Of a stretch of DNA of 64,000 nt, positions 23,166 to 39,069 are shown piece after piece. Below the pieces are notes generated by a model, which had not been told where the DNA came from, did not search any database, and was given only the letters and a program-made list of their open reading frames with translations. The first letter of the stretch is position 1. Each line of letters begins with the position of its first letter. This DNA is from an uncultured Victivallaceae bacterium (GTDB lineage: Bacteria; Verrucomicrobiota; Lentisphaeria; Victivallales; GWF2-50-93), in assembly GCA_964636325.1 (NCBI GenBank), contig CAZWRV010000010.1, forward strand, positions 29,072 to 93,071, in the 5' to 3' direction. The translations under genes were made by a program, and so were the position numbers.

Positions 23166-26159
23166 TCATTTTCCGCAGCACTTCTTGTATTTCTTGCCGC
23201 TGCCGCATGGGCATGGCTCGTTGCGGCCGACCCTGGGGGCGTTCCTGACGAAGGTGATGTTGACATCGGCCTGCTGGCCGTCGGCCTCGGATGAAGAGGC
23301 GGTGGCCGTCTCCGCCGGCTGGGCCTGGGGGGCTTGTCCGAACTGCTCGATCTGCTCGTGCCTCTGCTGCTGGGGCATGGACGCCAGCAGCCTCTCAAAT
23401 GCGGCGAGTGTGGTGGCGGATCTGAACATGTTCATGAGGATTTCCTGATTGATCTCCTGCATGAGCTCGCTGAACATCCTGAAAGCTTCGTGCTTGTACT
23501 CGACAAGCGGATCCTTCTGAGCATAGGCCCGGAGGTTGATGGTGGAGCGCAGATGGTCCATAGCGTAGAGATGCTCCTGCCAGAGACGGTCGACGGCCTC
23601 GAGGACGATGTGCCTTTCAAGCCAGAGGAGGGACTCCGGCGCCTCAAGCTCCGCCTTTAACTTGTAGGCCGCCTCGATTTTCTTCAGGATGTTCTCGTAG
23701 AGCCTGTCCTTGTCCGGGATTCCGTTCTCGACGGCGAGCGGGAGATCCCTGTCGCTGAACCCTATCGGGAAGGTGGAGTTGAGCCAGCCGAAAAGGGCGG
23801 CCTTGTCGAAGGGGTTTTCGGAGCTGGTCTGGGCGCATGCGTCCTCGATGTGGTTGTCGATCTCCTCCTTGAGGACGTTGAAGAGATGCTCGCGGGGGGT
23901 GTCGGTCACGAGGACCTCCTTGCGGAATCCGTAGATGACCTCCCTCTGCTTGTTCATGACGTCGTCGTATTCGAGCGTCCGCTTCCTTATTGAGAAGTGG
24001 TGCTGTTCGACGCGCTTCTGCGCCGTCTCGATGGAGCGGTTGAGGAGGGGATGCTGCAGTTCCTCGCCCTCCTCGAAGCCGAACTTGCTCATGATGTTGG
24101 CTATCCTGTCGGATCCGAAGAGCCGCATCAGGTTGTCCTCCAGGGAGATGTAGAACTTTGAGGAGCCCGGGTCGCCCTGGCGCGCGCAGCGGCCGCGGAG
24201 CTGGCGGTCGATGCGGCGTGAGTCGTGCCGTTCGCTTCCGATGACGTGCAGACCGCCGAGCTCGGCCACGCCTTCGCCCAGCTTGATGTCCGTGCCGCGG
24301 CCCGCCATGTTGGTGGCGACCGTGACCGAGCCTCTCTGTCCGGCGCGCGCGACGATGTCCGCCTCATACTCGTGGTTTTTCGCGTTGAGGACGTTGTGCG
24401 GGATGTGCTCGCGCTTGAGCAGCTTGCTCAGCAGCTCGGACACTTCGACGGAGACCGTTCCGAGCAAAACCGGCTGGCCCCTCTTGTGGCATTCCTTGAC
24501 CTCGTCTATTATGGCCCTGTATTTCTCGCGCTTGGTCTTGTAGACGCTGTCGTTGGCGTCCTTGCGGACGCATGGCTTGTTGGTGGGGATGACGACGACA
24601 TCGAGCTTGTAGATCTGGTGGAATTCGCTGGCCTCCGTCTCCGCGGTGCCGGTCATGCCCGCCAGCTTCTTATACATCCTGAAGTAGTTCTGTATCGTTA
24701 TAGTGGCCAGTGTCTGTGTCTCGCGCTCGATGACGACGCCCTCCTTGGCCTCGAGGGCCTGGTGAAGGCCCTCGCTGAAGCGGCGGCCGGGCTGGAGGCG
24801 GCCCGTGTGCTCGTCGACGATGATAACCTTGTTGTCCTGGACGACGTAGTGGACGTCCTTTTCGAAGAGGCAGTATGCGCGGAGGAGCTGGGAGAGGTTG
24901 TGGAGCATCTCGCTCTTTTTGCTGAACTCCTCCTGGAACGCCTGCTTTTTCCTCACCTTCTCCTCGGGAGAGGTGGAGCGGTCTGCGTCGATCTCGTGGA
25001 GCGAAGTCAGCAGGTCGGGCAGCACGAACATTTCGGGGTTGTCGGGGCTGATGGCGTTCCTGCCCTTTTCCGTGAGGTCGGCCTCGTGATGGCGTTCGTC
25101 TATCACGAAGAAGAGCTCGGACTGCACCTGGTAGAGGAGCTGCTTCGTCTGGTCGCTTCGGACGTTGGCCTCGGTGCGTTCGAGGTTCTTGAGGACTGCG
25201 CCGTCCTCGAGCATGTGGAGGAGCTGCTTGTGGGTGGGCATGCCGAACTTCACCTGGAGCATCTTGACGTATGCGTCGTTTATCTGGTCCTCCGTGGCGT
25301 TGCTCTCCCTGCTTCCGTCGCCGATGACCTCCTTCGCCTCCGACATGAGCCTGGAACAGAGCAAGCTCTGCTTCTTGAAAAGTTCGGCGATCGGCTGCTT
25401 CAGCTTGTCGAACTGGTGTGTGGAGACGGCCACCGGGCCGGAAATGATGAGCGGGGTCCTCGCCTCGTCGATGAGGATGCTGTCCACTTCGTCCACGATG
25501 GCGTAGTAGTAGTCGCGCTGGACAAGCTGGTTCTTGCTGGTGGCCATGCCCATGTCGCGCAGGTAGTCGAAGCCGAACTCGCTGTTGGTGCCGTAGGTTA
25601 TGTCGCAGTTGTACTGCTCCCTGCGCTCGGAAGGCGACATGTCGCCCTGGATGCATCCGACGGTCAGGCCCAGGAACTTGTAGATGTTCCCCATCCACTC
25701 GGAGTCGCGCTTCGCGAGATAGTCGTTGACGGTCACAAGCTGGCAGTTCCTGCCTGAAAGCGCGTTGAGGTATAGCGGCATCGTCGCCACGAGGGTTTTG
25801 CCCTCGCCGGTGGCCATCTCGGCGATTCCGCCGCGGTGAAGGACCATGCCGCCTATGAGCTGGACGTCGAAGGGGATCATTTCCCACACCAGCTCGTGAT
25901 CGCATACCACCACTGTCCTGCCGCAGAGCCTCCGGCAGACGTTCTTCACCGCGGCGAACGCCTCCGGCAGGATTTGGTCAAGCGTCTCGCCCTTGGCGAT
26001 GCGCTCCTTGAATTCGCCGGTCTTGGCCCGGATCTGCTCGTCGGTGAGAGACTGGTATGCTTGCTCGATGCGGTTGATCTCCGCGACAATCGGGCGCATT
26101 TTCTTGACGTCGCGGTCGGACTTGGAGCCGAATATCTTTTTGAGGACTGAGGTTATCAT
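23166..26159 (-). CDS. secA: Preprotein translocase ATPase SecA
   Basis: 997 aa. MATGEGKTL Walker [30 protein letters not shown], and the C-terminal zinc motif [14 protein letters not shown]. Confidence 0.97.
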
Positions 26160-27367: not shown

Positions 27368-27895
27368 ATGGACATGGATATTATGCGCAAAATAATTTCC
27401 CTTCTGAAGCGCCTCTCCGTGGCCGTGATCCTGCTGGTGGGCATGGCCGCCGTAGTATTCGGCATATTCAACATCCGCGCGGCCTGGGTCTGCAGCCTGT
27501 GGCCCACGGTCAAAGGCAGGATCGTCGACTCAACGCCCGCGCAGACGCGCAAGCCGGACGGCAGCAGCATTTATGTGGCGAACGTCGTCTACGAATACAC
27601 GGTCAAGGACAGCACATACTACTCCTCCAACATCTCGAACTTCGGCTACGACCTCTTTTATCCGTCGCTGTCATACTTCACCGGACAGATCAGCGACATC
27701 AAGCCGGTACTGAACAAGTATCCGGTCGACAGCGAAGTCACCGTCTATTACAATCCTAAGGACAACGACGTCTCGGTCATAGACCCCAGCCTCAAGCTGC
27801 CCGTCTTCCTTCCGCTGATTTTCGGGATACTGCTCCTTCTGATCGATTTCCACCTCGTCTACATACTCGGCATATTATCCACGAGGAAGAACTGA
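27368..27895 (+). CDS. DUF3592 membrane protein
   Basis: N-terminal TM, WPTVKGRIV...YEYTV.....Y beta-rich core, and C-terminal TM. This is the typical DUF3592 layout. Confidence 0.7.
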   Translation: MDMDIMRKIISLLKRLSVAVILLVGMAAVVFGIFNIRAAWVCSLWPTVKGRIVDSTPAQTRKPDGSSIYVANVVYEYTVKDSTYYSSNISNFGYDLFYPSLSYFTGQISDIKPVLNKYPVDSEVTVYYNPKDNDVSVIDPSLKLPVFLPLIFGILLLLIDFHLVYILGILSTRKN

Positions 27896-27953
27896 CTGGA
27901 TCGCGGAAGACATACTCATTTGGCGTCAAAATGTTAATTTTTCAGCCTAAAGG

Positions 27954-27994
27954 GTAAATATTCAGTGGAAGGGCTTAGCTCGCTGAATATTTGC
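27954..27994. repeat. Rep-C hairpin, copy 2
   Basis: GTAAATATTCAGTGGAAGGGCTTAGCTCGCTGAATATTTGC. Ends 9 nt before ATG 28004. Confidence 0.8.
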
Positions 27995-28003
27995 AGGTAT
28001 GAC

Positions 28004-28399
28004 ATGCGCTGCCCGGCATGCAGAATTGAAATGGTCGTGATAGAGCACCAGGACGTCGAGATAGACGTCTGCCACAGGTGCGGGGGAGTCTGGCTCGACG
28101 AGGGCGAGCTTGAAATATTGCTTGGCGCCGGGCAAGATGCCTCACCCTTCCACGATGCGTTGGATTCAAGCTCGGCAGGTGAGCCCGGAACAAGAAGATG
28201 CCCCGTCTGCTCGAAGAAGATGGGCAGGATTGCGATCAGGCTGGATACGCCGGTCGAAATCGACAAATGCCCAAGGAAGCACGGGCTCTGGTTCGACGAG
28301 GGGGAACTGCAGCTTGTGGCCGCTGCAAGCTTTTCAGGGGGTGCCGTAGCCGAATTTCTGAACAATACGTTGGAATGCAGATTGAAGAAAAAGCAATAG
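28004..28399 (+). CDS. Tandem zf-TFIIB-type zinc-ribbon protein
   Basis: Two copies of C-P-x-C ... C-x-x-C-x-G-x-W-(L/F)-D-x-G-E-L (MRCPAC..CHRCGGVWLDEGELE and RRCPVC..CPRKHGLWFDEGELQ). Start moved from 27965, which lies inside the Rep-C hairpin. Confidence 0.75.
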   Translation: MRCPACRIEMVVIEHQDVEIDVCHRCGGVWLDEGELEILLGAGQDASPFHDALDSSSAGEPGTRRCPVCSKKMGRIAIRLDTPVEIDKCPRKHGLWFDEGELQLVAAASFSGGAVAEFLNNTLECRLKKKQ

Positions 28400-28415
28400 C
28401 TCAAGGAGGTACTTC

Positions 28416-29000
28416 ATGACGGCAGGAGCCGGAATCGCAGGGGTCGGTCTCGTCCTCATAATCATCACGGTCGTAGCAGTGCTGGTGGTCTTATGGGCCA
28501 TCCTCACATACAACACTCTGATAGGCATGAGGAACATGGTCAGGAACGCCTGGGCCCAGATAGACGTCCAGCTCAAGCGCCGCCACGACCTCATACCCAA
28601 CCTCGTCGAGACCGTCAAGGGCTACGCAAAGCACGAGAGCGGAACCTTCGAGGCAGTAGTCAAGGCCAGAACCGCCGCCATGCAGGCGAACGGCGTCAGC
28701 GCGACCGCAAAGGCGGAAGGCGAACTCTCCGGAGTCCTCAGCAGGCTGATGGCTATCGCCGAGGCATACCCCGAACTCAAGGCCAACCAGAATTTCCTCA
28801 GCCTCCAGGAGGAGCTGTCGTCCACAGAGAACAAGATCGCCTTCTCCCGCCAAGCATACAACGACCAGGTCATGATCTACAACACCAAGACACAGATGAT
28901 ACCCTCCAACATAATCGCGGGCATTGGCGGCTTCACCCCGGAGGATCTCTTCGAGCTGAAGGACGAAGCCCAGCGCGAGGCGCCCCAGGTCAAGTTTTGA
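28416..29000 (+). CDS. lemA: LemA family protein
   Basis: N-terminal TM, then YNTLIGMRN.V.NAW.QIDVQLKRRHDLIPNLVETVKGYA.HE and AYPELKAN.NF..LQ.EL..TENKIA..R..YN. Confidence 0.9.
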   Translation: MTAGAGIAGVGLVLIIITVVAVLVVLWAILTYNTLIGMRNMVRNAWAQIDVQLKRRHDLIPNLVETVKGYAKHESGTFEAVVKARTAAMQANGVSATAKAEGELSGVLSRLMAIAEAYPELKANQNFLSLQEELSSTENKIAFSRQAYNDQVMIYNTKTQMIPSNIIAGIGGFTPEDLFELKDEAQREAPQVKF

Positions 29001-29336: not shown

Positions 29337-31037
29337 ATGCCCAAGAAATGGTATTTCCTCAAGGACGGCGCCGAACTTGGCCCGTTCAACAGCCAGGAGC
29401 TCATCCAGCTGGCCGAGGAGGACAAGCTCGGCCGCGACACGCCTGTAAAGCTTGACCTCGACGGTAAATGGCACAGGGCGTCCGAGCTGGAGGGGCTCTT
29501 CCCTACGGCACCCGCCCCGGCGGCAAACTCCGGCCAATCCGGCGCAGGCACAACAGGAAAGATGGTCGTCCCTTCCACACCGATCGTCTGCCCGCACTGC
29601 TGGGAGCATTTTTCCTACGAATCAATCCTCTATGTAGCCCGCCACCAGGATCTCAGGGGCGATCCCGTCATCGGCCCGGACGCCCAGAAGCGTTTCCTGC
29701 CGACGAAGTTCAACACCAAGGGCCACGCCATAGACGCCCGAGGCATGGAGTGCGAGGACATCGCCTGTCCGCACTGCCACCTCGAAATCCCGTATTCTGT
29801 CATAACGCTCGAATCTCTATACTTTTCGATCATCGGGGCGCCTTCAAGCGGCAAGTCATTTTTCCTTACAGCATTGATCGCCAAGCTCAGGGACAAGCTG
29901 CCACGCCACTTTGATTACAGCTTCACTGACGCCGACCCGGTCTTCAACGTTGTCGTCAACGACTACGTGCAGCGCCTCTTCGACAACGAATTCCCCGACA
30001 GCTTCGTCACGCTGCCGAAGACAGACCTCCGCGGCGACCTCTTCTCCAACCAGATTACGCTCAACGGCATGATCACGGACCTGCCCAAGCCATTCGTATT
30101 CAAGATCGAACCCTCGGGCACGCACGCCCTCCACGGGAAGCAGGCCGCCGGTCTTATCAGGAACCTGGTCTTCTACGACAACGCCGGCGAGCACATCCTG
30201 CCCGGGCAGGACAGCCCCAACAATCCCGCCACCAGGCACCTGGCCGAGTCCCACGGCATCATCTTCCTCTTCGATCCCGTACTCGACGCCGGAATGAGAC
30301 GCCTCTGCAGCTCCGGAGACCCGCAGCTCAAGGACGACTCCAAGCTCGTCAACCAGGCGGTACTATTCGCAGAAATGATCGGCAGGATCAGGAAGATGAC
30401 CGGCATGAGGGCCGGAGGCGCCTACAACAGCCCACTCATCATCGCCGTGTCCAAGTTCGACATATGGGAGAACCTCCTTCCCGACGACAATATCAGGGCC
30501 CTGGACCCTTGGTGCTACAACCCGCAGACAAGACGCAATGAACTCGACTATTGCGTCGTCGCCAACGTCTCATACCACCTCAGGGAGCTAATGCTGCAGA
30601 TCAAGCCCGACATCGTCGCGGCCGCCGAGGCGTTCTCGCCCAACGTCTTCTTCATCCCAGTCAGCGCCCTCGGCAGCAACTCCATTGAGAAGCAGGATGC
30701 CGCCCCCCCGGCTCCGGTGGAGGCCCCTAGAAAGACCGTCAGGCCGGGCGACGGCTCACCCTCCCTTTCACGCGCTTTCGGAACCAAGCCCGCCAACGTC
30801 AAGCCCGTGTGGTGCGAAACACCCATGCTCCTCCTCCTCGCGCTGAAAGGCTACTTCCCCTTGAACAAGTCATCACGGCACAAGGGCGCCGATCCCGAAA
30901 GCCATGAGTTCAGAAGGCATTTCGTCACATTGCGCTTCCCAAACCTCACGGAGGAAATAAAGCTGCCTTCCACATACTTCGGAACCACCGTATACCACAG
31001 AGAACTCAAAGCTTGGATCAATATCCCGGAAAACTGA
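29337..31037 (+). CDS. GYF_2 domain / CxxC..CxxC zinc ribbon / P-loop GTPase fusion, uncharacterised family (gene A of the candidate system)
   Basis: Residues 4-55 (KWYFLKDGAELGPFNSQEL...GKWHRASELEGLF) look like GYF_2. CPHC at aa 85-88 and CPHC at aa 144-147. G1 GAPSSGKS at nt 29835-29858, G3 DNAG at 30177-30188, G4 SKFD at 30450-30461, G5-like VSALG. No signal peptide or TM. Confidence 0.85.
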   Translation: MPKKWYFLKDGAELGPFNSQELIQLAEEDKLGRDTPVKLDLDGKWHRASELEGLFPTAPAPAANSGQSGAGTTGKMVVPSTPIVCPHCWEHFSYESILYVARHQDLRGDPVIGPDAQKRFLPTKFNTKGHAIDARGMECEDIACPHCHLEIPYSVITLESLYFSIIGAPSSGKSFFLTALIAKLRDKLPRHFDYSFTDADPVFNVVVNDYVQRLFDNEFPDSFVTLPKTDLRGDLFSNQITLNGMITDLPKPFVFKIEPSGTHALHGKQAAGLIRNLVFYDNAGEHILPGQDSPNNPATRHLAESHGIIFLFDPVLDAGMRRLCSSGDPQLKDDSKLVNQAVLFAEMIGRIRKMTGMRAGGAYNSPLIIAVSKFDIWENLLPDDNIRALDPWCYNPQTRRNELDYCVVANVSYHLRELMLQIKPDIVAAAEAFSPNVFFIPVSALGSNSIEKQDAAPPAPVEAPRKTVRPGDGSPSLSRAFGTKPANVKPVWCETPMLLLLALKGYFPLNKSSRHKGADPESHEFRRHFVTLRFPNLTEEIKLPSTYFGTTVYHRELKAWINIPEN

Positions 31038-31057
31038 GAATGGAGCTCTCACGGAGC

Positions 31058-31325
31058 GCTGGTAGCTTGCGCACGCCGTGCGCAAATGGCAGACTCTGCA
31101 TATTAGGAATGCCTGCGTTTCGTCCGCCTAGGCGGGTTCTGTTTTTTGCGCGCAGCGCGCGCAAACTACTTTTTGGCAAATTCTTTTGTTATATTCCACC
31201 ATCAGGAACTAAGTTTTTCCCTGCGGGAAAAAGGCACCCTTACGGCGCGCAGGTAGTTTGCGCGCAACGCGCGCAAACTACTTTTGGTAAAAACGTTTTC
31301 CAAGTCGCACCGTAAGGGACTAATA
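31058..31325 (-). repeat. Rep-E element, copy 3 (about 1.5 units, inverted relative to copy 1), filling the gap between genes A and B
   Basis: GGTAGCTTGCGCACGCCGTGCGCAAA, GTTTTTTGCGCGCAGCGCGCGCAAACTACTTTTTGGCAAATTC, TTTTTCCCTGCGGGAAAAA, the perfect hairpin GTAGTTTGCGCGCAACGCGCGCAAACTAC (about 31252-31280), and CCGTAAGGGACTAA. Matches the reverse complement of 566-788. Confidence 0.8.
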
Positions 31326-31374
31326 AAGACTAACGACCCTATACATGAGAGCCACATATCTGGAAATCTGACGC

Positions 31375-33927
31375 ATGCCCCAGGAACTCATACACACCTC
31401 GGCCCGCAAGGGCATAAAGGCCGGAAGCTGCGGATTCTGCACCGTGGCCTACACCGAAGGCATGGCCGCGAACCTGGTGTCGATTCTGGAGGCCTACAGC
31501 GTCTATATGCCGCTTTTCGATGTCGCCGGCGACAAGGCGCTCCTCAACCCAACGTCGTTCATCCACTACAGATGCTCGGTGGGGGCCCAGAGCCTCAGCA
31601 TCATAAGCCGCATCTCCTTCGCAGGACTCGACTACACGAACAGGTCCAACCGGGTGGCCCACCATCTCGTCCTTGACCAGGAGGACCTCCCCGCGGCAGG
31701 TCCGGCCGCATTCATACGGATTTTCGACCAGAAGTCCTACTTCGAGCGGAGCTGGGACAGGGATCCCGAACTGCTTCCGCACGGCCTCCTGAACGGCAGG
31801 GTGGCGGAGGTGAAGGAGGAGGCAATTTCCCGCTCGGGCAGGGCCTCCGCCTGGGATGAGTTCGCGGGCGATGCGGGCTGGGCGGGCGCACTCGCCGAGT
31901 CCTTCCTTGCCGACCGCACCAGGCCCTCGTTCATCGTGTTCGATCCGGAGCTGCACCGGAGCTGCGACCTCCTCCTGCTCGTCGAGGAGGCCCTGTCCTT
32001 CCTGCCGCCCCAAGAGCGCTGGCAGGTCACCTTCAACACGCACTTCTCGGCGCTCCCCCAGGGAACAAGATGCGTGTGGCGCTGCTGCACAAGGAACTCC
32101 GACGCCCTCAAGGAGGCGCGCCGCACGCCTGGCGCACTCGTCGTGGACCTTTCCGACCGCACCAGGAAGGCTGACGGCGGCACCCTTGTCCAGGCCGCAA
32201 GAACAGGGGAAATGCCGCGGCAGGAAGCGGCCGCAACCCACGTCACGCACAAGGATCTCACTCAGCTCGCGAAGGAAATCCAGAAGCTTTCCGAAAAAGA
32301 ACCGAAGGCGCGTCATGATTCCATAACGCCGGATTCCAGCATCGAAATGGATTCCGGAAGCAAAGCTGGAAGTTCTGCAAAAAGCACCGTAGGCGCCCAC
32401 TCCGGCGGAAAATCCCGGCACCGGTCCGCCGGACAGCCAGCAGGCGACCAGCGCAAATCCCATGCGGCCGCAATCTCGGCATGCGTCCTGATCCTCGCGG
32501 CAATCGCATTCTGCCTCTGGATACTCAACGAGCACAGGAAGATGCAGACGGCCCTAGCCGGAACCGGAAAAGACACTCTAGGGGAAAAACACACTACCGA
32601 ATTGCGGGAAGCCATCGAAATGCCCAAGCCAAAACTTGCCGAGCCGCCCAAGGAAGCGCCATCTAATATTGTAAAGCCTCATGGGCAAGAAAAGCCCGAA
32701 CCCCCTCCGCAGCACCCCCCGAAAGAAATAATCGAACCAGTCGTCACCGCAAAGCCCGCCAAGACTGTTGAAACGCCCAGTCATCCAGCGTCGGAAAAAC
32801 CTGAAGCTGGCGAAACACCACCAACTCCTCCTTCAAAACAACCTCCCAAACCGGCCGCAAGGCCCGGTGAAGGAATCAAAGACTTCTGGTTCCGCTGGCA
32901 GGAAGGAATCCGCGACATCGGCGACAAGGCTGAAATGCAAATCCCCGGCGTCCCGGCCGACGCCAAGATCTCAATCAAGCTGAAGGACAAATGCACAAAC
33001 GGCGCGGAAATAAAAGACAACGGCAGCCCCAGGCCCGTATTGTCCAACATCCTCGGCATGGACAAGGAGACCAGGATTCCTTTCAGAAAGGACAGCGCAT
33101 CATTCAGAATATCAAGAGACGGAATACTCACAGTCGAACTGACCGACGACGCCAGGAAGTTCAACGAACCGCAGACTCTCCTGTCGGAAAACATCAAGGA
33201 AATCGTCGCCGGCAGCATAAGCTGCTGCACCGAATACAAACCTCCGCTTCCGGACGGAACCGGCACATTCGTCAACCTGGCCACTTCAGACAGGCTCTCG
33301 AAACAGCCTGAGGAAAACTTCGACGACATCGATCTGCTCAAGTTCGAATTCAAGCCCGGCAAGATCGACAAGGCGGTCCTCGACAGAACGGACGGCTTCG
33401 CCTTCAGGCTCAGACTCGGTAGCACCGTCTTCCCCAGGACAACACTGTCCCTTCAGGATATTCACGCCCTGCTGCCCCCACCGGACACAGCCCCTCCGGG
33501 AAAGGAAATCCCCGAATTCAAGGATATTTCAAGCTCCAGGAAGTCATTGATCTCGAAGGCCGCGGAAATCTACACGGAACTTAACATCCCCGAGGCCGCA
33601 CGAAAATCTTTCCTGATCCCGGAGGAGACTGTAGGGCAGCTTGTCGAAAAAAAGCTGGAGGACACCGATAAAATGCCCGATAAGACAAACGGTGAAAAGG
33701 ACATAAAGAACCAGAAGATCACGTCGCTTAACAAAATCAGAAATGAGAAATGGCCGAAATACGCCGAAGCCAGGGACGAATACCTCTCCGGCAGGGCACA
33801 TTTCCTCAAGGCTCTCCCAGACCGTGTAAAAGACTTCCTCTCGGAGAGGCTCCCCGACTTCAGGCTCGAAATCATCGAGCGGAAAGACAAGGAGGAAATA
33901 CTCCACAAGACCGTGGTGTTCGAATGA
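31375..33927 (+). CDS. Bitopic membrane protein: GAP1-N-like N-terminal domain, one TM, Pro-rich linker, C-terminal ectodomain (gene B)
   Basis: The N-terminus MPQELIHTSARKGIKAGSCGFCTVAYTEGM follows the (Q/E)L-x-(H/Y)TS...G...G..GF......T.G pattern I recall for GTPase-associated protein 1 N-domains. TM at nt ~32464-32529. Pro-rich tract at nt 32622-32868. Confidence 0.8.
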   Translation: MPQELIHTSARKGIKAGSCGFCTVAYTEGMAANLVSILEAYSVYMPLFDVAGDKALLNPTSFIHYRCSVGAQSLSIISRISFAGLDYTNRSNRVAHHLVLDQEDLPAAGPAAFIRIFDQKSYFERSWDRDPELLPHGLLNGRVAEVKEEAISRSGRASAWDEFAGDAGWAGALAESFLADRTRPSFIVFDPELHRSCDLLLLVEEALSFLPPQERWQVTFNTHFSALPQGTRCVWRCCTRNSDALKEARRTPGALVVDLSDRTRKADGGTLVQAARTGEMPRQEAAATHVTHKDLTQLAKEIQKLSEKEPKARHDSITPDSSIEMDSGSKAGSSAKSTVGAHSGGKSRHRSAGQPAGDQRKSHAAAISACVLILAAIAFCLWILNEHRKMQTALAGTGKDTLGEKHTTELREAIEMPKPKLAEPPKEAPSNIVKPHGQEKPEPPPQHPPKEIIEPVVTAKPAKTVETPSHPASEKPEAGETPPTPPSKQPPKPAARPGEGIKDFWFRWQEGIRDIGDKAEMQIPGVPADAKISIKLKDKCTNGAEIKDNGSPRPVLSNILGMDKETRIPFRKDSASFRISRDGILTVELTDDARKFNEPQTLLSENIKEIVAGSISCCTEYKPPLPDGTGTFVNLATSDRLSKQPEENFDDIDLLKFEFKPGKIDKAVLDRTDGFAFRLRLGSTVFPRTTLSLQDIHALLPPPDTAPPGKEIPEFKDISSSRKSLISKAAEIYTELNIPEAARKSFLIPEETVGQLVEKKLEDTDKMPDKTNGEKDIKNQKITSLNKIRNEKWPKYAEARDEYLSGRAHFLKALPDRVKDFLSERLPDFRLEIIERKDKEEILHKTVVFE

Positions 33928-35051
33928 GATTTATGATCAAGCAGGCTTTTTTTTGGGGAACCGCCGCCGTCCTTCTAACGGCGGCGCCGCCGGTGCGCTG
34001 CGCGGAGGACGCCCCCGCCCCTGCCGCTCCCATGGAGGCGGCCCAGGAAACACCCGCCCCGGAAGCAGCCACATCATTCTGGGTTCTCTACAGAAGCGCG
34101 ATTTCAAAGGACAAGAAGTCTTACCGGATCCCCTTGGGCAAGGCCCGGCCCGGCGCAGCGATCGACGTCGTCATGGATATCCCGGACAGCAGCAAGGGGT
34201 TGGTCGGCCGCCCCGACAAGGAGTCCGTTGTCATATACAGCCTTTCAGGATATGACGAGTTAAGGGCCCCGCAGAAAAAGCCAAGGTTCACCATCAGATG
34301 CGGCGAACGGCAGATAATTATCGAGCGCACCGGAGAGCCCAAGTCGTTGGCGCCCTCTCCCGAACTTGCGGACATCACGCATTTCATCGTCGACGGCGTC
34401 ACATACCCCGCCAGCTTCGACGGCAAGCCTTTCAGCGAGGCGGAAGCCGCATGCGCCAGTTCCTTGTCCTCGAAGAAGCTCAACCTTGTCATCCGATACG
34501 AGTTTACGCCCGCCGACAGGATCGCCGGAGTTAACAACCCCGAAAAGTTCGACTTTCATCTGACGAACAGGTTCGACAGGGTTCTCTGCAAGCAGACGCA
34601 TGCCGGGGCGGACTCCGTCTCCTTCACCTGCGATTCCAAGCAGTTCCGCTACATCGAAGAGGCAAAACCGATCATCCAGGAGCTCGACAAGGAATTGGAC
34701 GAGCTCAGGGCAAAGATCACCTATGAGGCTGGAGACTCCAAGGAGATATCCAGGCTGCTCGATTCCCCAGCCGAACTCAAGGCGTATGCGGCGAGGCTCA
34801 AGGGAAAAAAGAACCCCGACTCAAACCAGTATCTCAAAGACCTGATCGACGAATACTGCGCAAAACTCGCCGCCTCCCAGGACAAGGTTGCGGACAGGCT
34901 CGGCGAAAACAACCAGATCGGCAGTCTCGCCCAGGCTTTGAAAAAAGATGTTGAAGATATAAGATTGCAGATCATCAGGAAGTCGGACGGAAAAATCATG
35001 AAGACCGTGGGCGTCCGCGTCGACGCCGCCAATGAACGGCCAGGGAAATGA
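33924..35051 (+). CDS. Secreted protein, paralogous to the gene B ectodomain (gene C)
   Basis: ATG 33924 overlaps the gene B stop (ATGA). Signal-peptide-like MRFMIKQAFFWGTAAVLLTAAPPVRCAED. Shares KF(D/E)F...D(R/K)(V/A)L and the tail D(I/F)RL(Q/E)II..K...KTV with gene B. Confidence 0.75.
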   Translation: MRFMIKQAFFWGTAAVLLTAAPPVRCAEDAPAPAAPMEAAQETPAPEAATSFWVLYRSAISKDKKSYRIPLGKARPGAAIDVVMDIPDSSKGLVGRPDKESVVIYSLSGYDELRAPQKKPRFTIRCGERQIIIERTGEPKSLAPSPELADITHFIVDGVTYPASFDGKPFSEAEAACASSLSSKKLNLVIRYEFTPADRIAGVNNPEKFDFHLTNRFDRVLCKQTHAGADSVSFTCDSKQFRYIEEAKPIIQELDKELDELRAKITYEAGDSKEISRLLDSPAELKAYAARLKGKKNPDSNQYLKDLIDEYCAKLAASQDKVADRLGENNQIGSLAQALKKDVEDIRLQIIRKSDGKIMKTVGVRVDAANERPGK

Positions 35052-38000
35052 GCCAGATGAAAGAAATCGTCGCCGAAATCCTCAAGTTCATAGGCGCTTC
35101 CGTCCAGACGGACACCAAGGAGATGCGCTCTGCCGCAGCCGGCTTCGCGAAGGCCTGCGAGGATGTCAATTCCCGCCTGGCGAAATCCGCGGAACTTCTG
35201 CGGAAGGACGAAAGACAGGAGGCCGTGGACCTCGCCGAGGCCGATCCGCCCCTCGCCGCAACCTTCGAACTTCTGGACTCAGTCCCTAGGGCGACATGGC
35301 TCGACCTCTGCAGGCTCTACGGCTGGCCCCTGCCTCCGGAACTTCACCGTGAATTGATGGAGACCGTGAAGGCTGCGGTCGCCAGGCACAGGCTGCTCAA
35401 ACCGCTCGAGGACGAATACCGCAGGGCGATCCACACCGGAACACTGCAGGACAAGGTCGCCGTACTCAGGAAGCTGCGCAAGATCGACCCCGCCGACAAA
35501 GGCTGGGAACAGTCCCAGAAGGACTTCGAAAAACTATGGATCGCCGAGCTTGTCGCGGCCGCGAAGTCCGCTATCGCATCTAACGACGAGGACTCCCTCA
35601 AAAGGATTGATTCAATACTGTCATCCCCGGAGTGGCTGCTTAGGCCCGACCCCGGGGATTCCCAGGACATCGACTCCAAGCTGAAGGAGTTCAGGATCGG
35701 CCACCTCAAGGAAAAGGCCGGAGTAATCATCAAGGACATCGCCTCCGCATACGGCCTGTTCGACCTGGACCGCCTCAACAACGCCCTCTCCAGGTGGGAC
35801 CTCATTGCCGAAGACAGAGAATTCGCTCCCTCCGAAACAGACCTCCAGCAGGTCAGGGAGGCCAGGGAATGGGCGGCCATAAAGAACAAGGAGGAGTCAT
35901 CCAAGAGGGAATTCCAAAATCTTCTGGAATCTATCCAGCAGATGTTCGACACCGACGAACAAGAGTTCCACAGGATCGACAACGCATACAGCAAGCTGCG
36001 CCAGTTCGAACGCGAAATTCCTGACATCATCGAAACCAGATACCGCAACGCGAAGGCGGAACACGAAGTCTCCATGGCCCGCGCCTTCAAGATCAGGCTT
36101 GCGGTCTTCGCAGCCTTGACAATCGCCGCCGTAGCCGCCGCGGTGTTCCTTGTCAACCAGAGGATTCGGCACAACAGGCACGCTGAATGGTCCAGGCAGA
36201 TCGGCAGCGCGGTAGAAGCCGGAAAACTCGACGAGGCGCTCAAGCTCTTCGACTCCATGAACTCCTCTTTCCCGAACATGGCGTCCGACCCGAAATTTGT
36301 CTCCCTCAGGAAAAGCTTAGACGGTCTCCTCGTCAAGCGGGATGCCGACCGGGCCCGCCTCAAGATCCTGCGGGGCGAACTTGAAAAGGCCGCCGCGGAC
36401 GGATTCCAATCAGACATCCCCGTGGAGGAGAAGATCCGCGAGGCAGAGCCGCTCGCCGACGCACCCGATGATACGCTAGCGTTGAAGAGGATCAAGGACG
36501 CTTGGCAGGAAAACCTCGCCGCCAGGCAGAGGCAGCGCGAAACCGAATTCCTTAAAAAGGTGGAGGCGCTCGAAGCGGTCTACGAACAGGCCGCCGCCAC
36601 CGACGCCAAGGCCGACCCCGCGGCATTCTCCTCCCTCATGAAAAAATACGAGAAGGAGGCCGACGCCATGGCGGAGTATTCCACAATCGCCAAGGACGTC
36701 TACGAGCCGAAGGCGGCGATGATGAAAAAGCGGCTCCAAACCCTTGTCAAAATATTCCAGGATGCCATGAAGGAACGCAAGGACTACGAAGCCGATCTCA
36801 AGCAGATCCACTCCGACATCAGGACCATCGCCGACTTCAAGGCATCCCTCGAAAGGTTCTCCGAAAGATACCCCGAATACCCCAACAGCGCCGACATCAG
36901 CCAGGTCCTCGGCTATATGAAGCACTACCTTGCCGCGGCGGCGCTCAAGGAGTTCATGCCGGCCACCGAAATGAAGCAGGACAAGATGGGCGCATTCAGC
37001 GACCTCGCCAAAATGATCGACTCGGCGTCCCCGTGGAGCCCCGACTTCCCCGACTTCCTGAAATATTACTGCCGCCTCCAGGACAGCGCCCCAGGATTCA
37101 AGGCCGCCTTCGAGGAACTTGCAAGAGCCCCGCTCATCAACTACTATTCCATCATGGCCAGGAGCCAGGACGGCGGCGCAGTCGAGATGATTTCCGAGGA
37201 GGAGCCGAAAATCAAGCCCAGCGGCACCGCCGACGGCAAGCCCATGCGCGAAATCTCAGTCCTCAGAATCATGAGCAGTAGCGACATCTCAGGCGTCTAC
37301 TGGTATCTCCAGGAAAACCCCTCCGGCAGATGGGACGCCAGATGCGGCGGCAAGATACTTCTGAAAAACCTCGAGATCGAAGACCTGCCGCACATCACCG
37401 CGAAAATACAGTCCTACACAAAACTCTCCGCCCTCTTCAAGGAGGCCGCGGCCGCAGGCCCGCTCCGCTTCGAAACTCAGGTCCTCGACATCATCGACGA
37501 AATCAAGGTCTCCACGGGCAACCCTTACAGGAGGCTCATCCTCCTGAAACACGTCATGGGCCAGGCAGAAAAAATATCGTGGTCTCTCTCCCCGGCCTTC
37601 GGAAGGCGCCTAGCCGAAATCCAGGACTTCATGGCCTCGTTCGGCGCCGGCTACGACTATTTCAACATGCCTCAGAAGGACGTTGCAAAAGTTACGCAGT
37701 TCTTGAAGGATCTTCCGGACATGAGGCCCGAAGCGGAGGCTTCCCTTGTCGGACGCGACGCAATCCTCGCCGCCCTGGACAGGTCCGTCGACTTCATGGG
37801 GATAGTCAAGGCCGACGGCGACGAGAAAAGCGCCGCCGCCAGGAAGATGAAATTCTCCGGGGAGCTCTGGGCCCTCAGGAAGGACAGCTCCGGCAAGTTC
37901 CGCTTCCACATCGTCGGAAACGTCAAGGACGGCGCCTCCATGCTCGACCCCGCCGAAACAAAATCGCTGTCCGACTGCGAACCCCTCTTCGCCCCGACCG

Positions 38001-38122
38001 ACGGCAAAAGGACCCTCGGCCTCGCCGCCGAGCTCCAGAGGCAGGCGGCCAAGACCGGCGCCGCAATCGCATGGCCGCAATGCTGGCCGGTCAACGGCAT
38101 CCCCGCAGAACCAAAGCGTTAG
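35048..38122 (+). CDS. 1024-aa bitopic, largely alpha-helical protein (gene D), no recognisable domain
   Basis: ATG 35048 overlaps the gene C stop (ATGA). Single TM at nt ~36097-36156 (LAVFAALTIAAVAAAVFLV) separates a ~350-aa N-terminal part from a ~650-aa C-terminal part. Confidence 0.8.
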   Translation: MSQMKEIVAEILKFIGASVQTDTKEMRSAAAGFAKACEDVNSRLAKSAELLRKDERQEAVDLAEADPPLAATFELLDSVPRATWLDLCRLYGWPLPPELHRELMETVKAAVARHRLLKPLEDEYRRAIHTGTLQDKVAVLRKLRKIDPADKGWEQSQKDFEKLWIAELVAAAKSAIASNDEDSLKRIDSILSSPEWLLRPDPGDSQDIDSKLKEFRIGHLKEKAGVIIKDIASAYGLFDLDRLNNALSRWDLIAEDREFAPSETDLQQVREAREWAAIKNKEESSKREFQNLLESIQQMFDTDEQEFHRIDNAYSKLRQFEREIPDIIETRYRNAKAEHEVSMARAFKIRLAVFAALTIAAVAAAVFLVNQRIRHNRHAEWSRQIGSAVEAGKLDEALKLFDSMNSSFPNMASDPKFVSLRKSLDGLLVKRDADRARLKILRGELEKAAADGFQSDIPVEEKIREAEPLADAPDDTLALKRIKDAWQENLAARQRQRETEFLKKVEALEAVYEQAAATDAKADPAAFSSLMKKYEKEADAMAEYSTIAKDVYEPKAAMMKKRLQTLVKIFQDAMKERKDYEADLKQIHSDIRTIADFKASLERFSERYPEYPNSADISQVLGYMKHYLAAAALKEFMPATEMKQDKMGAFSDLAKMIDSASPWSPDFPDFLKYYCRLQDSAPGFKAAFEELARAPLINYYSIMARSQDGGAVEMISEEEPKIKPSGTADGKPMREISVLRIMSSSDISGVYWYLQENPSGRWDARCGGKILLKNLEIEDLPHITAKIQSYTKLSALFKEAAAAGPLRFETQVLDIIDEIKVSTGNPYRRLILLKHVMGQAEKISWSLSPAFGRRLAEIQDFMASFGAGYDYFNMPQKDVAKVTQFLKDLPDMRPEAEASLVGRDAILAALDRSVDFMGIVKADGDEKSAAARKMKFSGELWALRKDSSGKFRFHIVGNVKDGASMLDPAETKSLSDCEPLFAPTDGKRTLGLAAELQRQAAKTGAAIAWPQCWPVNGIPAEPKR

Positions 38123-38154: not shown

Positions 38155-39069
38155 ATGTACTACCTCAGGGAAAACGGCAAGATACACGGGCCCTTCACCG
38201 CCGAAAGGATGAAGGAGCTGGCGGCGTCCGGAAGGATTTCGCGGCAGACAGAGGTCTCCGACGACAGGACAGTCTGGAAGCTGGCGGACTGCTACTCCGA
38301 ACTCTTTCCGGAAAAGAAGCACGCGGCCCCCCCCTCTCTTCCAAAAACTCCAAAGATTGCATCCAAGGAACCTAAGGTGGAGGAAAAAAACGCAGAACCG
38401 GAAGTCATACGCCTTGACCTGCCGGACTTCACACGCCCGGCAAGAGACGTGAAAGTCTCCCCGCCCGACCCGCCGGACATGGAACTCCCGCGAGAAAGCG
38501 CCTTCCGGAAATTGCTTTTCCTGGAAATCGCCTGGGATCCGATGGAGTCCATTCCGGAAATCTACTCCGCGCTCGGGGATAACGGCGCTTTGAAGACGGG
38601 CATTGCGTTGATTGTCCTATCGGCACTATCAGTATTCGCCGCCCTTGAACTTGCGGCCCGCAGCGGCAACCTCGGAATCAACGCAGGCCATTTCGGAATG
38701 GCCTTCTTCTCCTTCATCTCCCTCGGAGGACTTCTCGTATCCTGCTTCATCGTCCGGAAATTCCTGGGGGAAAAAGGCGAAGGCGGCTCCGGCGGGGACT
38801 GCCTAACTGCAGGCTCGGGCGCAATCCTGCTCTCGATCGCACTCCTGATCTCGGCGCTGACGGCCTGGGACGGCGCGTTCTTCCAGCGGTTCGGCGCGAT
38901 CATTTCCGCCGGCGCCGTCCTTTATGCGGCATGCTCAATGGTTTTCTGCATCTTCACCGGATGCACAAGAATCTCACGCATACCGCGCTCCGTCGGACCA
39001 GTCGCCGTCCCCCTCATAATCGCCGCCACCGCGATCACCGCAGGCCTCGCCGCAAAATTCCTCCTCTGA
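38155..39069 (+). CDS. GYF_2 domain protein with C-terminal multi-pass (about 5 TM) membrane domain (gene E)
   Basis: MYYLRENGKIHGPFTAERMKELAASGRISRQTEVSDDRTVWKLADCYSELF looks like GYF_2. It is followed by a Pro/Lys-rich linker, then hydrophobic segments from nt ~38590 to the end (Yip1-like by eye, unverified). Confidence 0.8.
   Translation: MYYLRENGKIHGPFTAERMKELAASGRISRQTEVSDDRTVWKLADCYSELFPEKKHAAPPSLPKTPKIASKEPKVEEKNAEPEVIRLDLPDFTRPARDVKVSPPDPPDMELPRESAFRKLLFLEIAWDPMESIPEIYSALGDNGALKTGIALIVLSALSVFAALELAARSGNLGINAGHFGMAFFSFISLGGLLVSCFIVRKFLGEKGEGGSGGDCLTAGSGAILLSIALLISALTAWDGAFFQRFGAIISAGAVLYAACSMVFCIFTGCTRISRIPRSVGPVAVPLIIAATAITAGLAAKFLL

Follow-up and report, generated by a model that had tools for sequence, protein, structure and literature searches.

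What kind of protein joins a GYF_2 domain, two CPHC knuckles and a full set of small-GTPase motifs in a single 566-aa chain? The gene in question (29337..31037, + strand) lies in a 64,000-nucleotide stretch of DNA from an uncultured Victivallaceae bacterium (hereafter the window). Taken together, its open reading frame, homologs and AF2 model indicate that it quite probably encodes a single-copy DO-GTPase of the DO-GTPase2 type, the predicted switch subunit of a GTPase-centric, membrane-associated system of the GAP1-N2 type. Far from being a one-off, the fusion of domains recurs as a variant of a system already known from prediction.

The reading frame begins with an ATG, and the stop-to-stop frame that contains it opens only five codons upstream. 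A sequence search recovered 719 homologs at E<=1e-3, the nearest from a Victivallis vadensis MAG (54% identity), and AF2 modelled the protein with a pLDDT of 92 and a pTM of 0.84. A PDB sequence search with this single protein as query gave no match, an NCBIfam search returned noise-level Obg matches at G1 only, and no Rfam families were found within the window. The positions that the initial annotation had assigned to GYF_2, both CPHC motifs, G1, G3, G4 and a G5-like VSALG each proved accurate on re-examination. Its view that the C-terminal tail lacks a transmembrane (TM) segment is borne out as well, none being predicted anywhere in the protein.

The central part of the protein had been read as a guanine-nucleotide TRAFAC P-loop domain, and both the alignment and the structural model argue for that reading. 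The domain (aa 158-450; 29808..30686, + strand) carries G1 GAPSSGKS (aa 167-174; 29835-29858), G3/Walker B DNAGE (aa 281-285; 30177-30191), G4 SKFD (aa 372-375; 30450-30461) and G5 VSALG (aa 442-446, with SALG at 30663-30674). Residues G167, G172, K173, D281, N282, G284, E285, K373 and G446 are invariant in 81 homologs, D375 is retained in 80 of 81 and S443 in 78 of 81; E285, the glutamate of YDNAGE, is also invariant in broader homolog sets. Judged from the alignment, this conservation is well beyond chance. The segment between G1 and G3, earlier described as an insert of about 105 aa, measures 108 residues from K173 to D281 but is not a simple insert, as it contains an invariant K228-T229 pair. 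T229 (30021-30023) is likely the G2/switch-I threonine, a motif absent from the earlier list.

The family's peculiarities do leave room for another explanation, in which the P-loop domain is that of an ATPase or an inactive pseudo-GTPase and the likeness of G4 and G5 to GTPase motifs is fortuitous, a case that the initial annotation had itself set against its reading. Position 372 is S, T, G, P or A across the family and not the canonical Asn of NKxD, the Glu that follows DxxG recalls Walker-B Glu ATPases, and the query's own matches to Pfam GTPase families are sub-threshold. Yet chance look-alikes are unlikely because such motifs would not stay conserved across four phyla, as the G4 and G5 residues and the switch-I T229 do. 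The Foldseek placement that had been recommended for this domain tells the same way: the best 50 matches listed (E 4.5e-5 to 9e-4) are overwhelmingly GTPases, including EF-Tu/EF1A, Era, Ras/Rab/Rho and G-alpha, with no ATPase family among them. The family profile also matches EngA/Der over the G1 and G4 regions. On conservation and Foldseek results we therefore reject the ATPase explanation as highly improbable. Compared with solved TRAFAC GTPases (EF-Tu/aEF1A, Era, EngA/Der, Ras/Rab/Rho and G-alpha), the modelled GTPase has the same G-domain fold and follows the G1-G5 scheme, but identity is only 9-16% and no close relative has been solved. It further differs in having Glu after DxxG in place of Gln or His, approximately 55 residues from G1 to the switch-I Thr, and extra zinc and C-terminal modules.

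The DO-GTPase family and the GAP1-N2 GTPase-centric systems were predicted computationally by Kaur et al. (2020, eLife; PMC7159879), who describe a conserved glutamate in Walker B, one or two N-terminal zinc ribbons in 60% of the family and a GAP1 partner encoded downstream. Our query scores 24.4 bits against the Pfam DO-GTPase2 family (PF19993), just under the 27-bit cut-off, and its membership thus rests on transitive homology and genomic context. Whole-core homology to PF19993-annotated proteins reaches E values of 1e-90 to 1e-143, and PF19993 itself matches 75 of 81 close homologs and 64 of 84 representatives at 50% identity. The architecture, which the initial annotation had taken to be unknown, therefore belongs to a family that is in Pfam and was described by Kaur et al., and Attia et al. 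(2024, Sci Adv; PMC11135422) had already remarked on how commonly a GYF domain precedes a zinc ribbon (ZnR) in the PVC clade. The accompanying statement that no protein of this architecture has been characterized agrees with our literature search for experimental work on the family, which yielded neither an assay of nucleotide binding nor a structure or phenotype.

The locus resembles the published DO-GTPase/GAP1-N2 systems in its TRAFAC GTPase with a Walker B Glu, its N-terminal zinc ribbon, its PVC-clade distribution, its downstream protein with GAP1-N2 and GAP1-M domains and its TM-bearing components. It differs in encoding one GTPase copy and not a pair. The two paralogous GTPase genes from which the "double" name derives occur in only 38% of systems and are not obligatory (PMC7159879), and no second GTPase paralog was found in the window or in 80 related loci. 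It also differs in carrying GYF_2 on the GTPase itself, a fusion that receives no mention in the main text of Kaur et al. (PMC7159879); in one supplementary file of that paper, GYF has zero occurrences.

The GYF_2 domain of the GTPase (aa 5-54; 29349..29498, + strand) matches PF14237 with E=3.8e-8 and a score of 33.4 bits (cut-off 25.8). It appears to be a variable N-terminal adaptor. Homologs have between 8 and 269 aa ahead of C85, and the position held here by GYF_2 is, in relatives, either empty or taken by FHA, a kinase domain or an additional zinc ribbon; GYF_2 is the most frequent of these interchangeable modules. A search for the combined architecture, as earlier proposed, found GYF_2 together with DO-GTPase2 in 43 of 81 close homologs and in 23 of 84 representatives after clustering at 50% identity. 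Since relatives swap the module in this way, the suggestion that GYF serves recruitment or sensing is plausible, and the exchange of GYF, FHA and kinase modules at the N-terminus suggests a set of switches that take peptide or phospho-peptide inputs. We found no conserved proline-rich ligand for the GYF domain. An intramolecular ligand, the Pro-rich loop of the GTPase (aa 456-476), was ruled out, since this loop contains a mean of 1.1 Pro in GYF-bearing homologs.

A flexible linker (aa 56-80; 29502..29576, + strand; pLDDT <50 at aa 62-75) separates GYF_2 from a four-Cys zinc module (aa 83-152; 29583..29792, + strand) that includes CPHC motifs at aa 85-88 (29589-29600) and aa 144-147 (29766-29777). 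C85, C88, C144 and C147 are invariant in 81 sequences and, because the two CxxC knuckles supply only these four invariant Cys, they point to one putative zinc site. The initial annotation was right about both knuckles and the 55-residue span between them; the span is, however, a conserved beta-rich module modelled at pLDDT 94-98, so that the whole is not a minimal ribbon. Pfam zinc-ribbon families match sub-threshold and at the knuckles only. The module is kept, invariant, even in family members without GYF and is packed rigidly against the G domain in the model, features that make it part of the family core and speak against its earlier interpretation as a sensor.

A comparison with the Myxococcus protein GltJ bears on how these N-terminal parts might work. 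In GltJ, the GYF domain binds a proline-rich sequence, and a ZnR-linker-GYF switch is read by the GTPase MglA and its GAP MglB (PMC11135422). Both proteins combine a bacterial GYF with a four-Cys ZnR on a flexible linker, the GltJ module likewise works with a P-loop GTPase and a regulator at the membrane, and the GYF-then-ZnR order seen here is the one noted for the PVC clade. By analogy, the GYF-linker-ZnR segment could form an intramolecular switch in cis, in which the linker would dock on the GTPase in one nucleotide state and its release would bare the ZnR for GAP1 while GYF binds a proline-rich partner. The disordered linker and the published precedents, both for the arrangement in the PVC clade and for a GTPase-responsive switch in GltJ, are in keeping with this idea, as is a weak profile match between our GYF region and the GltJ GYF structure 7z3c (E=0.31). 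Set against it are the presence of the zinc module, invariant, in family members wholly devoid of GYF, its modelling as a rigidly packed unit (pTM 0.84) and not as a releasable ribbon, its size beyond that of a classical ZnR, and a linker that is short and variable in length. We consider such a cis switch quite unlikely. The two systems differ in further respects: the GTPase is without a TM segment, whereas the GltJ-type module sits on a membrane receptor, the GltJ module reads a separate Ras-like GTPase in trans whereas the module here shares one chain, in cis, with a soluble GTPase from another family, the domain order is reversed relative to GltJ, the zinc module is a larger and invariant part of the GTPase family, and no MglA/MglB or AglZ homologs are involved.

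At the other end of the protein, the C-terminal region (aa 476-566; 30762..31034, + strand) consists of a conserved helix segment and a beta-rich extension, modelled at pLDDT 96-97, and matches no Pfam family. Residues ~480-508 are conserved family-wide (P485, P490, W492 and P496 at >=90%), and residues ~510-566 form an extension that is confined to long forms and is longer where proteins bear N-terminal modules. The tail after G5 is ~120 aa long, shorter than the 150 aa first reported.

We compared the gene neighborhood with those of 80 species-level related loci, the total number of loci being at least 584. A cassette with the order GTPase, GAP1, ~1000-aa single-TM protein and GYF plus multi-TM protein recurs in Lentisphaerota, Planctomycetota, Verrucomicrobiota and Kiritimatiellota. 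The GAP1 gene of the window (31375..33927, + strand; 850 aa) matches Pfam PF20013 (E=7e-20) and PF20014 (E=1e-10), with GAP1-N2 at 31378-31773, GAP1-M at 31858-32154 and one predicted TM at ~32455-32529. Past the TM come a Pro-rich linker and a C-terminal region of ~370 aa without a known family. A GAP1 homolog is encoded downstream on the same strand at 74 of 80 loci, adjacent to the GTPase gene in nearly all, and occurs in forms with and without the TM/ectodomain.

GAP1 is followed by a gene for a 375-aa protein (33924..35051, + strand) with, by eye, a signal-peptide-like N-terminus, which suggests a secreted or lipoprotein-like product. The gene overlaps each neighbor by 4 bp and, with homologs at 0 of 80 related loci, appears to be a variable cassette member. 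That this protein is a paralog of the GAP1 C-terminal region was unsupported (BLASTP E=0.18, last ~60 aa only). The next gene (35048..38122, + strand) encodes a conserved, largely helical 1024-aa protein with one predicted TM (~aa 346); a homolog lies downstream of GAP1 at 58 of 80 loci, and no Pfam family scores above cut-off. The last (38155..39069, + strand) encodes a 304-aa protein with GYF_2 (Pfam E=3.8e-8) and five TM segments, a putative membrane effector or output. A downstream GYF protein is present at 38 of 80 loci, and nearly every complete ORF for it has TM segments; a linked gene of matching design, which joins GYF to a TM-rich region, was described for planctomycete GAP1-N2 systems (PMC7159879). 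A protein with rapidly evolving FNIII repeats was also described as typical of GAP1-N2 systems (PMC7159879); here no cassette protein matches fn3 in Pfam, and the conserved ~1000-aa helical protein is found instead. The GAP1 C-terminal region and the secreted-like protein, either of which may have a divergent Ig/FNIII fold, match no Pfam family.

The genes upstream of the GTPase in the window, among them LemA, Zn_ribbon_TFIIB and DUF3592 genes, have counterparts at 0 of 80 related loci and were therefore rejected as system components. The cassette thus lies in a genomic context that is not conserved.

The distribution of GYF domains within the cassette hints at how its parts may be linked. A TM protein with two GYF domains occurs at 16 of 23 loci whose GTPase lacks GYF versus 3 of 15 whose GTPase bears it (Fisher p=0.007), a pattern that is confounded by phylogeny, as it largely splits Lentisphaerota from Planctomycetota. 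Two GYF domains per system seem to be the rule: the membrane protein carries both, or it has one and the GTPase the other. The window shows the split arrangement, with one GYF on the membrane protein and not a pair; BLASTP of its two GYF domains against each other detected no similarity. A pair divided in this way hints at what keeps the switch and its membrane output together.

The GAP1 model offers a clue to the regulation of the GTPase. The N-terminal 300 aa were modelled with a pLDDT of 94.4 and a pTM of 0.90, and the best PDB matches by Foldseek are FLCN (E 8.9e-4), TagF (3.9e-3), FNIP2, DENND1A-Rab35 (1.1e-2; TMq 0.41), DENND10 and GATOR1. The modelled GAP1-N2 domain has the element order beta-beta-alpha-beta-beta-beta-alpha, which is the longin order, and is followed by an alpha/beta domain. 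Candidate functional residues in this part of GAP1 are the invariant R90, a possible arginine finger, and E39. Like the eukaryotic longin and DENN regulators in this list, GAP1 is paired, here genomically, with a GTPase. TagF we take to be DENN-like, and a literature search for a TagF-DENN link returned author-name matches only. The longin/DENN matches are weak overall (E 9e-4 to 1e-2, TM 0.2-0.4) and without sequence-profile support, and PAS/LOV folds appear further down the list; the N-terminal half of GAP1 thus models, weakly but consistently, as a longin plus DENN-like fold. If this fold holds, it would provide a first concrete mechanistic hypothesis for GAP1 control of the GTPase and add to the bacterial examples of regulator folds that lie at the heart of membrane trafficking in eukaryotes. 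A bolder combination, in which GAP1 is a bacterial longin plus DENN-type GEF or GAP of the DO-GTPase and the two retained GYF domains couple the switch to the membrane output, strikes us as doubtful. Were it true, the PVC-clade cassette would be a prokaryotic counterpart of eukaryotic DENN/folliculin-Rab/Rag modules.

These features can be arranged in a working model of the GTPase-centric system. Input would come from the TM and extracytoplasmic region of GAP1, the cytoplasmic N2 and M domains of which (modelled as longin and DENN-like) would bind the GTPase and set its GTP/GDP state. In its GTP state, the GTPase would act on the membrane components. Its GYF domain may cooperate with that of the multi-TM protein, through a common proline-rich ligand or mutual pairing, and this cooperation would keep switch and output together.

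Such a system could serve in a conflict or abortive response, the role proposed by Kaur et al., or in the signalling of envelope/membrane stress. The conflict argument draws on variable components and on effectors common to other conflict systems, namely SLATT, FGS and trypsin (PMC7159879), and the present locus has variable parts of its own in the unique secreted-like protein, the swappable N-termini, the two forms of GAP1 and the shifting genomic context. On the other hand, the supposed effectors, the ~1000-aa TM and GYF-TM proteins, keep their order across phyla and are not hypervariable. The flanking genes (SecA, LemA and GDSL lipase) are housekeeping genes, and PADLOC gave no match to a known defense system for the GTPase and chance-level matches only for its neighbors. 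These observations would suit, in place of a conflict or defense device, a module with which PVC bacteria signal across the membrane or react to envelope stress. The outward-facing region of GAP1 would pick up a cue from the envelope, which the GTPase would pass on to the conserved membrane proteins for a response. We regard this signalling role as a serious possibility, if somewhat short of an even chance.

DO-GTPase/GAP1 systems are known from comparative genomics alone, and the locus, as a compact and intact single-GTPase example with confident models of both core partners, is a reasonable entry point for biochemistry. One feature of the locus runs counter to our reading. The spacer between the GTPase and GAP1 genes (31038..31374) is unusually long, at 337 bp, and contains two terminator-like copies of a GC-rich palindrome (31145-31169 and 31257-31281), whereas at most of the other loci the GTPase and GAP1 frames directly adjoin or overlap each other.

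The GTPase gene (window 29337–31037, forward strand) encodes a 566-aa protein from an unambiguous ATG start, the stop-to-stop frame opening just five codons 5′ of it. The initial annotation had described a GYF_2 domain, a CxxC..CxxC ribbon and a small GTPase whose C-terminal tail has no transmembrane (TM) segment, and most of this was borne out: Pfam places GYF_2 at residues 5–54 (E=3.8e-8, above the gathering score), TM prediction over the 566 residues returns no segment, and the positions given for the CPHC knuckles (residues 85–88 and 144–147), G1 (GAPSSGKS, 29835–29858), G3/Walker B (DNAGE, 30177–30191), G4 (SKFD, 30450–30461) and G5 (VSALG), all on the forward strand, are exact on re-check. 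An alignment of 81 homologs reveals C85, C88, C144, C147, G167, G172, K173, D281, N282, G284, E285, K373 and G446 to be invariant and D375 to be present in 80, with motif invariance also seen in broader sets (clusters at 50% identity). Invariance across the 81 homologs thus argues that the GTPase and zinc motifs are not chance. E285 aligns with Q61 of Ras and H84 of EF-Tu, and we take it to be the catalytic residue after DxxG. Across the family, G4 reads [S/T/G/P/A]-K-x-D, not NKxD, with the lysine and the guanine-specifying aspartate conserved.

Three elements of the earlier description required revision. The two knuckles are present but constitute one four-cysteine site, and the 55 residues they enclose form a conserved, beta-rich segment. 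The stretch considered an insert between G1 and G3 exists but holds the invariant K228-T229, of which T229 is probably the switch-I (G2) threonine. The tail, put at 150 aa, extends ~120 aa after G5, and its first part (residues ~480–508) belongs to the family core, with P485, P490, W492 and P496 each at least 90% conserved.

An AlphaFold2 model of the GTPase built on the 81-sequence alignment (pLDDT 92, pTM 0.84) contains disorder only at residues 62–75, the linker between GYF and the zinc ribbon (ZnR), and at about 455–475. The best 50 Foldseek matches in the PDB are overwhelmingly GTPases (aEF1A, EF-Tu, Rab1, Era, Hbs1, G-alpha, Rac/Rho/Ras and CysN among them; E 4.5e-5 to 9e-4, 9–16% identity), and the family profile weakly matches EngA/Der over G1 and G4 (E=3e-3). 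The alternative that the protein is an ATPase with look-alike G4/G5 motifs is therefore rejected, and the annotated GTPase call stands. A PDB search with the single GTPase sequence gave no match, and the DO-GTPase family is without a solved close relative.

Kaur, Burroughs, Iyer and Aravind (2020), the source of the GAP1-N2, GAP1-M and DO-GTPase Pfam families, described ‘GTPase-centric systems’ in which two components are conserved. One is a GTPase of a new TRAFAC family, whose Walker B motif has a conserved glutamate and 60% of whose members bear one or two N-terminal zinc ribbons; the other is GAP1, the gene for which usually lies directly downstream of the GTPase (PMC7159879). Reported hosts of the GAP1-N2 type are actinobacteria, firmicutes, planctomycetes, verrucomicrobia and chloroflexi, and in some planctomycete systems a linked gene joins GYF domains to a region rich in TM segments (PMC7159879). 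The window shares the Walker B glutamate (the invariant E285 of YDNAGE), the zinc site (invariant in its GTPase family), a GAP1-N2/M gene 3′ of the GTPase and, in common with the planctomycete systems, a GYF_2 + 5-TM protein (38155–39069) at the cassette end.

Scored against DO-GTPase2 (Pfam accession PF19993), the protein reaches a sub-threshold 24.4 bits (cut-off 27 bits), and its DO-GTPase1 score in Pfam is also sub-threshold. Among 8000 candidates scored with the query, 719 proteins match at E≤1e-3, and many PF19993-annotated proteins are among those matched over the full core at E 1e-90 to 1e-143; PF19993 is found in 75 of the 81 aligned homologs and in 64 of 84 cluster representatives (50% identity). 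These comparisons indicate strong homology to the DO-GTPase family despite the marginal Pfam score. When the zinc + GTPase core was searched exhaustively against 1.84 billion representatives, 1303 clusters matched at E≤1e-3 and 430 did so at E≤1e-30, which indicates a well-populated family of modest size. The initial annotation knew of no characterized protein of such architecture. Our literature search likewise found no experimental work on the DO-GTPase family, but the protein is a fresh member of a family known as prediction only, and the GYF-on-GTPase form, not spelled out in the main text of Kaur et al. (PMC7159879), is a common sub-variant in Lentisphaerota. The locus is of interest for its experimentally unexplored family, its clean single-GTPase cassette and two leads, namely a longin/DENN-like GAP1 fold and the GYF count.

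A scan of species-representative genomes identified at least 584 related loci. The best 80 of these belong to Lentisphaerota (Victivallales, Oligosphaera), Planctomycetota, Verrucomicrobiota and Kiritimatiellota; the nearest is a Victivallis vadensis MAG (54% identity), so the window probably derives from a lentisphaerote. Searching the window proteins against stop-to-stop ORFs of the 80 loci recovered homologs of GAP1 (31375–33927) in 74, downstream on the same strand and adjoining in nearly all, and of the 1024-aa single-TM protein (35048–38122) in 58. By a more sensitive GYF search, 38 loci encode a GYF protein downstream, and nearly all of the complete ORFs among these have TM segments; the cassette's own last gene encodes GYF_2 and 5 TM segments. 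Homologs of the secreted protein (33924–35051) and of the upstream LemA, Zn_ribbon_TFIIB and DUF3592 proteins were found in none of the 80. These counts thus define a core cassette of GTPase, GAP1, ~1000-aa TM protein and GYF-TM protein, with a variable slot between GAP1 and the ~1000-aa protein. The last four cassette genes in the window are tightly packed (two 4-bp overlaps, one 32-bp gap). Neither the window nor any of the 80 loci contains a second GTPase paralog, and the clade therefore represents a single-GTPase form; Pfam detected no FNIII-repeat protein in the cassette. The secreted/lipoprotein-like product of 33924–35051 (375 aa) has 4-bp overlaps with both neighbours and is translationally coupled; its last ~60 aa show a faint, non-significant resemblance to the C-terminus of GAP1 (E=0.18).

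The zinc module is invariant regardless of what precedes it; homologs have between 8 and 269 aa ahead of C85. GYF_2 is the N-terminal module in 43 of 81 close homologs and 23 of 84 representatives at 50% identity, followed by FHA-type (6 and 15) and Zn_ribbon_4 (5 and 2) modules; a protein kinase precedes the core in 2 representatives and is not among the families reported for the 81 homologs. Many forms from planctomycetes lack any such module. GYF is thus the most frequent among several swappable modules for peptide recognition or signalling. The FHA and kinase N-termini hint at phospho-signalling input to the same GTPase switch. A sensor or recruitment role, initially suggested for both GYF and the zinc ribbon, is thus supported for GYF but not for the invariant zinc module. 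Some DO-GTPase2 relatives begin with a Ser/Thr protein kinase or a very long (~985 aa) N-terminal extension, and others have FHA domains.

The sole experimental precedent for the GYF/ZnR module is Myxococcus GltJ. Its GYF domain binds the AglZ proline-rich sequence with micromolar affinity, and its ZnR-linker-GYF region is a switch in which the linker is the binding site of MglA-GTP and the ZnR, once freed, recruits the GAP MglB (Attia et al., 2024; PMC11135422). An adjacent ZnR occurs in 44% of bacterial GYF proteins; in the PVC clade it is C-terminal to GYF, a flexible linker always lying between them, and the main text of that study does not mention a fused GTPase (PMC11135422). We found no conserved proline-rich GYF ligand on the cytoplasmic side. 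The proline-rich stretch of GAP1 sits after its TM segment and so, by inferred topology, is probably extracellular, and the GTPase's own proline-rich loop was rejected as a conserved ligand because homologs do not conserve it. Loci whose GTPase lacks GYF encode a downstream membrane protein with two GYF domains in 16 of 23 cases; among those whose GTPase carries GYF, the membrane protein has two in 3 of 15 and one in the rest, as in the window (Fisher p=0.007, uncorrected for phylogeny). This pattern suggests that two GYF domains must cooperate for the system to work, which would tie the GTPase physically to the membrane protein.

GAP1 (850 aa) contains GAP1-N2 (Pfam accession PF20013, E=7e-20) and GAP1-M (Pfam accession PF20014, E=1e-10). 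A confident model of residues 1–300 (31375–32274; AF2, pLDDT 94.4, pTM 0.90), based on 55 homologs that all contain PF20013 and nearly all PF20014, has a beta-beta-alpha-beta-beta-beta-alpha N2 domain followed by an alpha/beta domain. The proteins that it matches best in the PDB by Foldseek are without exception GTPase regulators of longin and/or DENN type, or their bacterial look-alike: Folliculin (FLCN; E 8.9e-4), bacterial TagF (E 3.9e-3, prob 0.95), FNIP2 (two chains, E 9.4e-3 to 1.9e-2), DENND1A bound to Rab35 (E 1.1e-2, TMq 0.41), DENND10 (E 1.1e-2) and GATOR1 (E 5.2e-2). These scores are weak, PAS/LOV folds appear further down the list, and profile searches with GAP1 gave no sequence support for longin/DENN. 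On the model, GAP1 may be a GEF or GAP of the DO-GTPase, with the invariant R90 as a candidate catalytic arginine. Longin, DENN and Roadblock are not mentioned in Kaur et al. (PMC7159879).

The analysis shows how the domains are arranged, which family the protein belongs to and that the cassette is conserved; beyond this, we propose a mechanism in which the cytoplasmic N2+M region of GAP1 would bind the GTPase and set its nucleotide state, driven by input through the TM segment and outward-facing region of GAP1. The GTPase, once active, would work on the conserved membrane proteins, with GYF domains linking the switch to the multi-TM protein. Such a cassette could serve in conflict, with a GTP-gated threshold as proposed by Kaur et al. 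(PMC7159879), or in envelope signalling, and we consider the two about equally likely. The conflict role sits uneasily with output components that are conserved, not hypervariable, with zero PADLOC matches and with housekeeping flanking genes; a PSP survey describes DO-GTPases as predicted players in membrane stress.

The 337-bp GTPase-GAP1 spacer contains two copies (31145–31169 and 31257–31281) of a GC-rich terminator-like palindrome, TTTGCGCGCA[G/A]CGCGCGCAAACTAC followed by a T-run, of which zero copies are expected by chance. A third copy with 2 mismatches lies near the window start (680–704). The palindrome resembles dispersed elements of REP or terminator type, and the spacer copies may uncouple transcription of GTPase and GAP1 in the window. 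Just 5′ of the GTPase, a same-strand cluster (27368–29000) encodes a DUF3592 membrane protein, a double Zn_ribbon_TFIIB protein and LemA; this trio, found at none of the 80 loci, also lies 5′ of the GTPase on an independent Logan contig. The window's SecA (997 aa; 23166–26159, reverse strand) has an unusually long DEAD-like match (residues 6–514 over a 290-position profile), which suggests a large insertion in that domain.
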